This document shows, one piece after another, positions 53,820-53,870 of a DNA stretch of 64,000 nucleotides. The stretch lies in NCBI RefSeq assembly GCF_056712565.1, contig NZ_CM160072.1, one strand, 5' to 3'. A program made the translations under genes and the position numbers. Each line of letters begins with the position of its first letter. Positions within the stretch are counted from its first letter, which is position 1. The notes below the pieces were generated by a model. That model made no database searches, was not told where the DNA came from, and worked only from the letters and a program-made list of their open reading frames with translations.

Positions 53820-53870
53820 ATTATAAATCTCATTATCTTAATTGCAACGGGGTCCGTAGGTGGTTATAAT
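53820..53870. promoter_or_regulatory. Back-to-back sigma70-like promoters sharing a palindromic -35 TTGCAA
   Basis: Plus: TTGCAA(53842-53847)-N17-TATAAT(53865-53870). Minus: same TTGCAA-N16-TATAAT (complement of 53820-53825). Confidence 0.6.

Follow-up and report, generated by a model that had tools for sequence, protein, structure and literature searches.

A single TTGCAA hexamer as the probable common -35 element of the divergent zor-orz toxin-antitoxin promoters in Escherichia coli

The segment at positions 53820-53870 of the window, as the whole analysed stretch of 64,000 nucleotides (NZ_CM160072.1, assembly GCF_056712565.1) is called here, most probably holds the core promoters of zor-orz, a known type I toxin-antitoxin module, with one palindromic TTGCAA serving as the -35 element in both directions and permitting initiation at only one promoter at a time. 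A probability of about 0.85 is assigned to this reading, the proposed mechanism included. The motif itself is real and selected, and it was correctly read in the preliminary description, which had been made from the letters alone. The locus, its RNAs, their start sites and the hexamers have all been published already, and the finding adds nothing to the map; the question that it raises is a narrow one, namely whether the common -35 makes the initiation of toxin and antitoxin interfere.

Architecture of the promoter region

The plus strand of the segment reads ATTATAAATCTCATTATCTTAATTGCAACGGGGTCCGTAGGTGGTTATAAT and is laid out as ATTATA-N16-TTGCAA-N17-TATAAT (Table 1). The preliminary description had claimed one TTGCAA with TATAAT boxes at 17 bp on the plus strand and 16 bp on the minus strand, and this was confirmed by the sequence and by a consensus scan. 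Its wording of "consensus promoters" was apt for the -10 boxes, which are perfect, and overstated for the -35, which matches TTGACA at only 4/6 positions, so that each promoter agrees with the consensus at 10/12 positions. A score of 4/6 is the maximum for any palindromic hexamer read both ways, and TTGCAA is the one among the four top-scoring palindromes in which TTG is retained on both strands. The TG extension of the -10 was absent from both promoters in the consensus scan. The two -10 boxes lie 39 bp apart and the start sites 65 bp apart, the latter being equidistant from the TTGCAA dyad (16 + 7 = 17 + 6). In both directions the features expected of a sigma-70 promoter were found, with hexamers 16 bp (zor) and 17 bp (orz) apart, where 16-18 bp is expected, and starts, placed by homology, 7 (zor) and 6 (orz) nt past the -10, where 5-9 nt is expected. 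Seen from the orz promoter, the zor spacer is at the same time an A/T-rich upstream stretch, at -36 to -51.

Within 52500-55200, the scan returned exactly two promoter-like sites, one rightward (17 bp) and one leftward (16 bp), both built on the same TTGCAA. A perfect -10 together with a -35 of at least 4/6 was found at only two plus-strand and two minus-strand sites of the 64-kb window, and zor and orz formed the sole pair with a common hexamer among its good promoter sites. The chance expectation of the exact architecture is 9e-6 per 64 kb and 7e-4 per 5-Mb genome. It appeared in none of 1000 dinucleotide-preserving shuffles, against 49/1000 for a relaxed version with TANNNT boxes.

Table 1. 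Coordinates of the zor-orz features in the window and of related sites in other sequences
Feature	Position	Strand	Basis or remark
zor (toxin) promoter -10, TATAAT	53820..53825	-	consensus scan; no variation in 18 distinct alleles
zor promoter spacer, 16 bp	53826..53841	.	length constant, 9/16 columns variable
Palindromic TTGCAA, -35 for both strands	53842..53847	.	consensus scan; constant in sampled alleles
orz promoter spacer, 17 bp, G/C-rich	53848..53864	.	length constant, 14/17 columns variable
orz (antitoxin sRNA) promoter -10, TATAAT	53865..53870	+	consensus scan; constant in sampled alleles
zor mRNA start, a G, 7 nt past -10	53812	-	homology: 174-nt 5'UTR, RBS numbering
Rest of zor 5'UTR (174 nt including start at 53812)	53639..53811	-	RBS AAGGAG 53644-53649
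Orz target site in zor 5'UTR (+83..+102)	53711..53730	-	pairing table
zor ORF, 29 aa + stop, MDTLTQKLTVLIAVLELLVALLRLIDLLK	53549..53638	-	identical to first of two O157:H7 toxins (ZorO)
Orz sRNA, ~82 nt, terminator hairpin 53932-53952 + U run	53877..53958	+	Rfam RF02083, published V1 numbering, fold
IS-split zor/orz promoter	L033 1539-1600, 2650-2690 (UTME-9, NZ_CP157110.1); L010 360-410 (metagenome)		
Phage example sites	L097 8645; L104 2282; L117 3067; L142 13536		

Identity of the locus and start sites

The region matches the sequence between yehK and yehL of E. coli ATCC 11775 with 100% identity and thus lies at the chromosomal site expected of the module (yehI/yehK-yehL), which was discovered in the yehI-yehL region of O157:H7 EDL933 (PMC2887945). 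The Rfam family OrzO-P (RF02083) matched over its full length at 53884-53957 (91.5 bits against a gathering score of 60, E = 8.7e-15), and a divergent ORF for a hydrophobic Zor protein of 29 aa is present with its AAGGAG RBS at +164..+169. The RefSeq annotation marks neither zor nor orz at the locus. The earlier assignment of the two promoters to an antitoxin sRNA and a toxin mRNA is thereby borne out by the RF02083 match, the Zor ORF and the published system. In EDL933 the genes form a true toxin-antitoxin pair, in which the toxin is toxic, Orz rescues and nt 1-18 of OrzO repress zorO (PMC3919570). The toxin protein of ATCC 11775 is identical, while its Orz/target allele is a different one.

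The starts of both zor mRNAs and of both sRNAs of EDL933 were mapped by primer extension (PMC2887945). The zorO leader is 174 nt long, with the RBS at +164..+169 (PMC5397157), and since this length and this numbering fit the ATG at 53638 and AAGGAG at 53649-53644, zor +1 was placed at 53812. Similarly, the specificity triplet V1 of Orz occupies +9..+11, being GAA in OrzO and ACG in OrzP (PMC3919570), and this numbering, applied to the O157 sequences, fixes orz +1 at 53877, the G of GTTGG. The starts predicted in the preliminary description, 53877 (plus) and ~53813 (minus), therefore agree with the published numbering of the O157:H7 homologue to within 1 nt. The description had made its promoters depend on the existence of such starts, and in the homologue both were found by primer extension where they had been predicted. 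RNA function constrains the exact start positions and therefore also the promoter geometry.

Published hexamers and conservation

Predicted -35 and -10 elements are boxed in Fig. 1A of PMC3919570, and Table 3 of PMC11264685 gives "-35 (TTGCAA)" and "-10 (TATAAT)" for both zor and orz. The common -35 is implicit in that table, because the two -10 boxes enclose a single TTGCAA. In the accessible zor-orz literature, no passage was found on the single -35 serving both genes; a full-text search for a "shared" or "overlapping" -35 returned unrelated papers only, and a second search gave pLS20-type overlaps of another geometry. Among 2,439 full loci the -35 is conserved at 99.4% for zor and 99.4% for orz, and the -10 at 100% and 99.8%, respectively, with similar hexamer conservation in 656 orz-only loci (PMC11264685). 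These figures are by themselves no proof of special constraint, since the -10 and -35 hexamers of ordinary genes (sodA, araC and ompC) are likewise highly conserved within species.

A separate allele sample was retrieved from species-representative genomes and metagenomes by way of the Orz terminator, and hence independently of the promoter. It contained 18 distinct alleles with the full architecture, including those of E. whittamii and two further Escherichia species. One retrieved sequence bearing the Orz terminator (L020) was rejected as the terminator of an unrelated gene in another organism. The 16/17 spacing was found in all 18 alleles, and variable columns numbered 0/18 in the hexamers and 23/33 in the spacers. 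The mean A+T content, calculated over 13 distinct cores, was 0.73 for the zor spacer and 0.36 for the orz spacer.

Pairing of Orz with the zor leader

The first ~20 nt of Orz would pair with the zor leader and so repress zor. In the predicted duplex, Orz nt 1-20 and zor +83..+102 form 19/20 pairs (17 Watson-Crick and 2 G-U) with one mismatch, G7/A96, at -35.0 kcal/mol, compared with -21.6 +/- 2.8 kcal/mol for shuffled Orz 5' ends. Wen (2014), as quoted in PMC11264685, took as pairing at least 15 nt of continuous complementarity, or a minimum of 17 nt where there is one internal mismatch, and the ATCC 11775 Orz and zor leader pair to this extent. The zor and Orz transcripts both begin with GUUGG(G) (53807-53812 and 53877-53882). 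In the predicted fold of the zor leader, its own nt 1-5 pair with +98..+102 (53711-53715) in 16/17 alleles, and the CAAC within this stretch is also the partner of Orz nt 1-4. The first 28 nt of the zor mRNA have been reported to mask the region targeted by Orz, and the modelled self-pairing at CAAC fits that masking.

The idea that Orz arose when the zor promoter and leader were duplicated in inverted orientation about the TTGCAA dyad was considered and is not supported by alignment scores: when the initial 60 nt of the zor and orz transcripts were aligned locally, they scored no better than shuffles (22 allele pairs, z from -0.6 to 2.2), and the two stretches have only GTTGG and a GTTGC motif in common. 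In two metagenome alleles (L014 567 and L023 350), Orz pairs noticeably worse with the zor that shares its promoter, at -26 to -29 kcal/mol against -33 to -42 kcal/mol elsewhere, which may reflect recombination between locus types. Additionally, Orz (53877-53961) matched the OhsC model with 31.6 bits, below the gathering score of 50 and mostly over the terminator and the region before it, a match that hints at a distant kinship of the two divergent antitoxins.

Initiation at the two promoters and alternative readings

One hexamer has room for only one sigma-70 region 4 domain. The promoter that reads leftward (16-bp spacer, start at 53812) would give the zor mRNA, with its structured leader of 174 nt and an ORF for a membrane toxin of 29 aa, and the rightward promoter (17-bp spacer, start at 53877) would give the Orz sRNA of ~82 nt. 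On one DNA molecule, initiation complexes at the two promoters would not be simultaneous, because region 4 needs the same 6 bp and the usual footprints of -55..+20 overlap by ~45 bp. Steric exclusion of two RNA polymerases on one molecule is, from this geometry and from what is established about the holoenzyme, near certain. The weight of this exclusion on RNA output depends on promoter occupancy, and the odds of a measurable effect are judged to be somewhat short of even, while those of a selected regulatory role are clearly low. The proposal in the preliminary description that the common -35 couples toxin and antitoxin transcription is reasonable as a hypothesis; the effect on RNA output is probably modest, with toxin control remaining mainly post-transcriptional, that is, exerted through leader structure, 5' processing, Orz pairing and RNase III.

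By sequence rules, the antitoxin promoter is probably favoured over that of zor. The orz promoter has the optimal spacer of 17 bp and a G at -14, and its upstream region, which consists of the zor spacer and the zor -10, is A/T-rich. For these reasons it is probably the stronger of the two, the spacer of the zor promoter being 16 bp long and its upstream region G/C-rich. The sequence upstream of the orz -35 resembles an UP element, while that upstream of the zor -35 does not.

The strongest form of coupling would be a transcriptional toggle, in which a polymerase at one promoter largely blocks the other, toxin and antitoxin are anticorrelated and their ratio is set at the promoter. Such a switch is considered unlikely here. 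Occupancy could be high, given the perfect -10 boxes and near-optimal spacers on both sides, and the 16/17 geometry is constant across Escherichia alleles. The closest experimental parallel is found in promoters that share a -10, among which competition appeared once one direction had been strengthened or strongly activated; the basal activity of the five natural examples was, however, too low for competition (PMC12825309). Moreover, zor and Orz RNAs were detected in the same EDL933 cultures (PMC2887945), so exclusion is not absolute at the population level. The sister systems shoB-ohsC and tisB-istR also function without a common -35, and zor/orz variants split by an IS element are found in nature, both of which argue against a toggle. 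No experiment on occupancy or interference at this promoter pair was found in the accessible zor-orz literature.

The opposite outcome, positive coupling, has been given a slim chance. In that case divergent transcription from starts 65 bp apart would generate negative supercoils and stimulate the partner promoter after escape of the polymerase. Topological coupling of divergent promoters has been documented elsewhere (PMC5175336 and PMC4469952), and the zor and orz promoters are very close to each other; perfect -10 boxes nevertheless melt easily, and less dependence on supercoiling would be expected of them. Slimmer still is the prospect that TTGCAA is used by one promoter only, the other acting through its -10 alone, with nothing shared in practice. 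A perfect -10 can indeed supply much promoter activity, and the zor spacer of 16 bp is sub-optimal, but neither side has the TGn extension, the 16-bp distance stays constant while the spacer sequence drifts, and the alternative hexamer at 17 bp, GTTGCA, scores only 3/6. That the palindrome is mainly the operator of a dimeric regulator of both genes is very hard to credit, despite its symmetry and partly conserved flanks (AA on one side, C/T on the other), as an operator of 6 bp would be a short one, the adjoining spacer positions show free variation and no regulator has been reported for zor-orz.

Variant alleles and neighbourhood

In E. coli UTME-9 (NZ_CP157110.1), an IS element of ~1.1 kb, encoding an "integrase core domain" protein, sits precisely at the junction of the zor spacer with TTGCAA. 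Insertion at this point, which separates the two promoters, was seen in several E. coli isolates from pigs and chickens. A metagenome contig (L010) has 20 bp of the IS end left at the same spot; its interpretation as an evolved pair of separate -35 boxes was ruled out, the 20 bp being the IS element end. In both the UTME-9 allele and this contig, the zor -10 now stands opposite TACACA (4/6) at 16 bp.

K-12 has lost the toxin and kept the whole double promoter together with ~28 nt of the zor leader (L002 1500-1600 / L035 8290-8400). The predicted starts in MG1655 are 2204337 (minus) and 2204402 (plus), and OrzP, which has the same promoter, has been detected in K-12. The leftward promoter is now directed into the 3' end of yehK, and the edge of the deletion coincides with the published +28 processing site of the zor mRNA.

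Downstream of the toxin gene in the window, GCACATGCAACTTGAAGTATGAC is found at 53440-53490 (also at L001 1856-1890), which we take to resemble a fragment of an ERIC/IRU repeat; near this position, Rfam gave only a weak match of chance level (53366-53463). According to RefSeq, yehK (~52970-53290) and yehM (downstream of 55164) are frameshifted pseudogenes in ATCC 11775 (L003 1494-1810 and 3689-), and the O157:H7 record also has disrupted copies of yehI and yehM.

Recurrence in phage modules and wider meaning

Viral contigs (L036-L155) were scanned for TTGCAA between two -10 boxes. The 17/17 spacing was found in strong excess (50/95 distinct sites, p = 5e-7), and 13 of these 50 sites carry TG extensions on both sides. 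A small gene for a ribbon-helix-helix-like protein adjoins 7/13 of the TG-extended sites, and a gene of the Zn-ribbon/HNH type lies on the opposite side in 4/5 of those sites whose small protein was scanned. The phage contigs with two -10 boxes about one TTGCAA are low in GC, and the ribbon-helix-helix protein is of ~50 aa. This recurrence in unrelated phage RHH/HNH modules may point to selection for the geometry itself, which may be a general compact wiring for two opposed genes.

Should interference at zor-orz be true, the promoter would in part determine the ratio between a type I toxin mRNA and its antitoxin, and variation of this ratio from cell to cell could stem from the choice made by the polymerase. 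It seems doubtful that the sharing of a -35 constitutes a second class of bacterial bidirectional promoter, with initiation one at a time and distinct from the class that shares a -10; if it does, toxin and antitoxin bursts at zor-orz would be anticorrelated in single cells. Sharing of a -35 as a general arrangement would extend the picture of bidirectional promoters, which now rests on common -10 elements.

Comparison with known systems

The closest relatives are zorO-orzO and zorP-orzP of O157:H7 EDL933 (Fozo 2010; Wen 2014, 2017; Shore 2024), which have the same site, ZorO toxin and Orz family as the ATCC 11775 locus, as well as the same hexamers, 16/17 spacing, start-site positions and logic of 5'-end pairing. 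ATCC 11775 has a single copy, whereas EDL933 has a tandem pair; its Orz carries GCC at +9..+11, in place of GAA (OrzO) and ACG (OrzP), and its orz spacer differs at a few positions.

In the bidirectional promoters of Warman and Grainger, the symmetry of core elements likewise lets polymerase bind in either orientation, with binding in one precluding binding in the other (PMC12825309). There, however, the -10 is common and the starts are 7-25 bp apart, while at zor-orz the -35 is common, each promoter has its own -10 box and 65 bp separate the starts. The zor-orz pair accordingly falls outside a definition of the Warman/Grainger type, which explicitly sets aside "separate promoters that are divergent" (PMC12825309). 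The Pc and Pr promoters of plasmid pLS20 are, as at zor-orz, closely apposed and divergent, and binding at one affects the other; unlike at zor-orz, the -10 of one falls on the -35 of its partner, and switching is driven by a regulator. The PR and PRM promoters of lambda are also closely apposed and divergent, with separate -35 boxes and dependence on CI.

Among the type I modules, shoB-ohsC and tisB-istR-1 resemble zor-orz in having a divergent sRNA whose 5' end pairs with a long toxin leader. The -35 hexamers of shoB-ohsC are nevertheless separate, GTGACC and TTGTAA, ~70 bp apart, and tisB-istR-1 has no common -35, tisB being LexA-controlled and without a listed -35. Of the divergent type I pairs in E. 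coli, zor-orz is thus the only one with a common -35.
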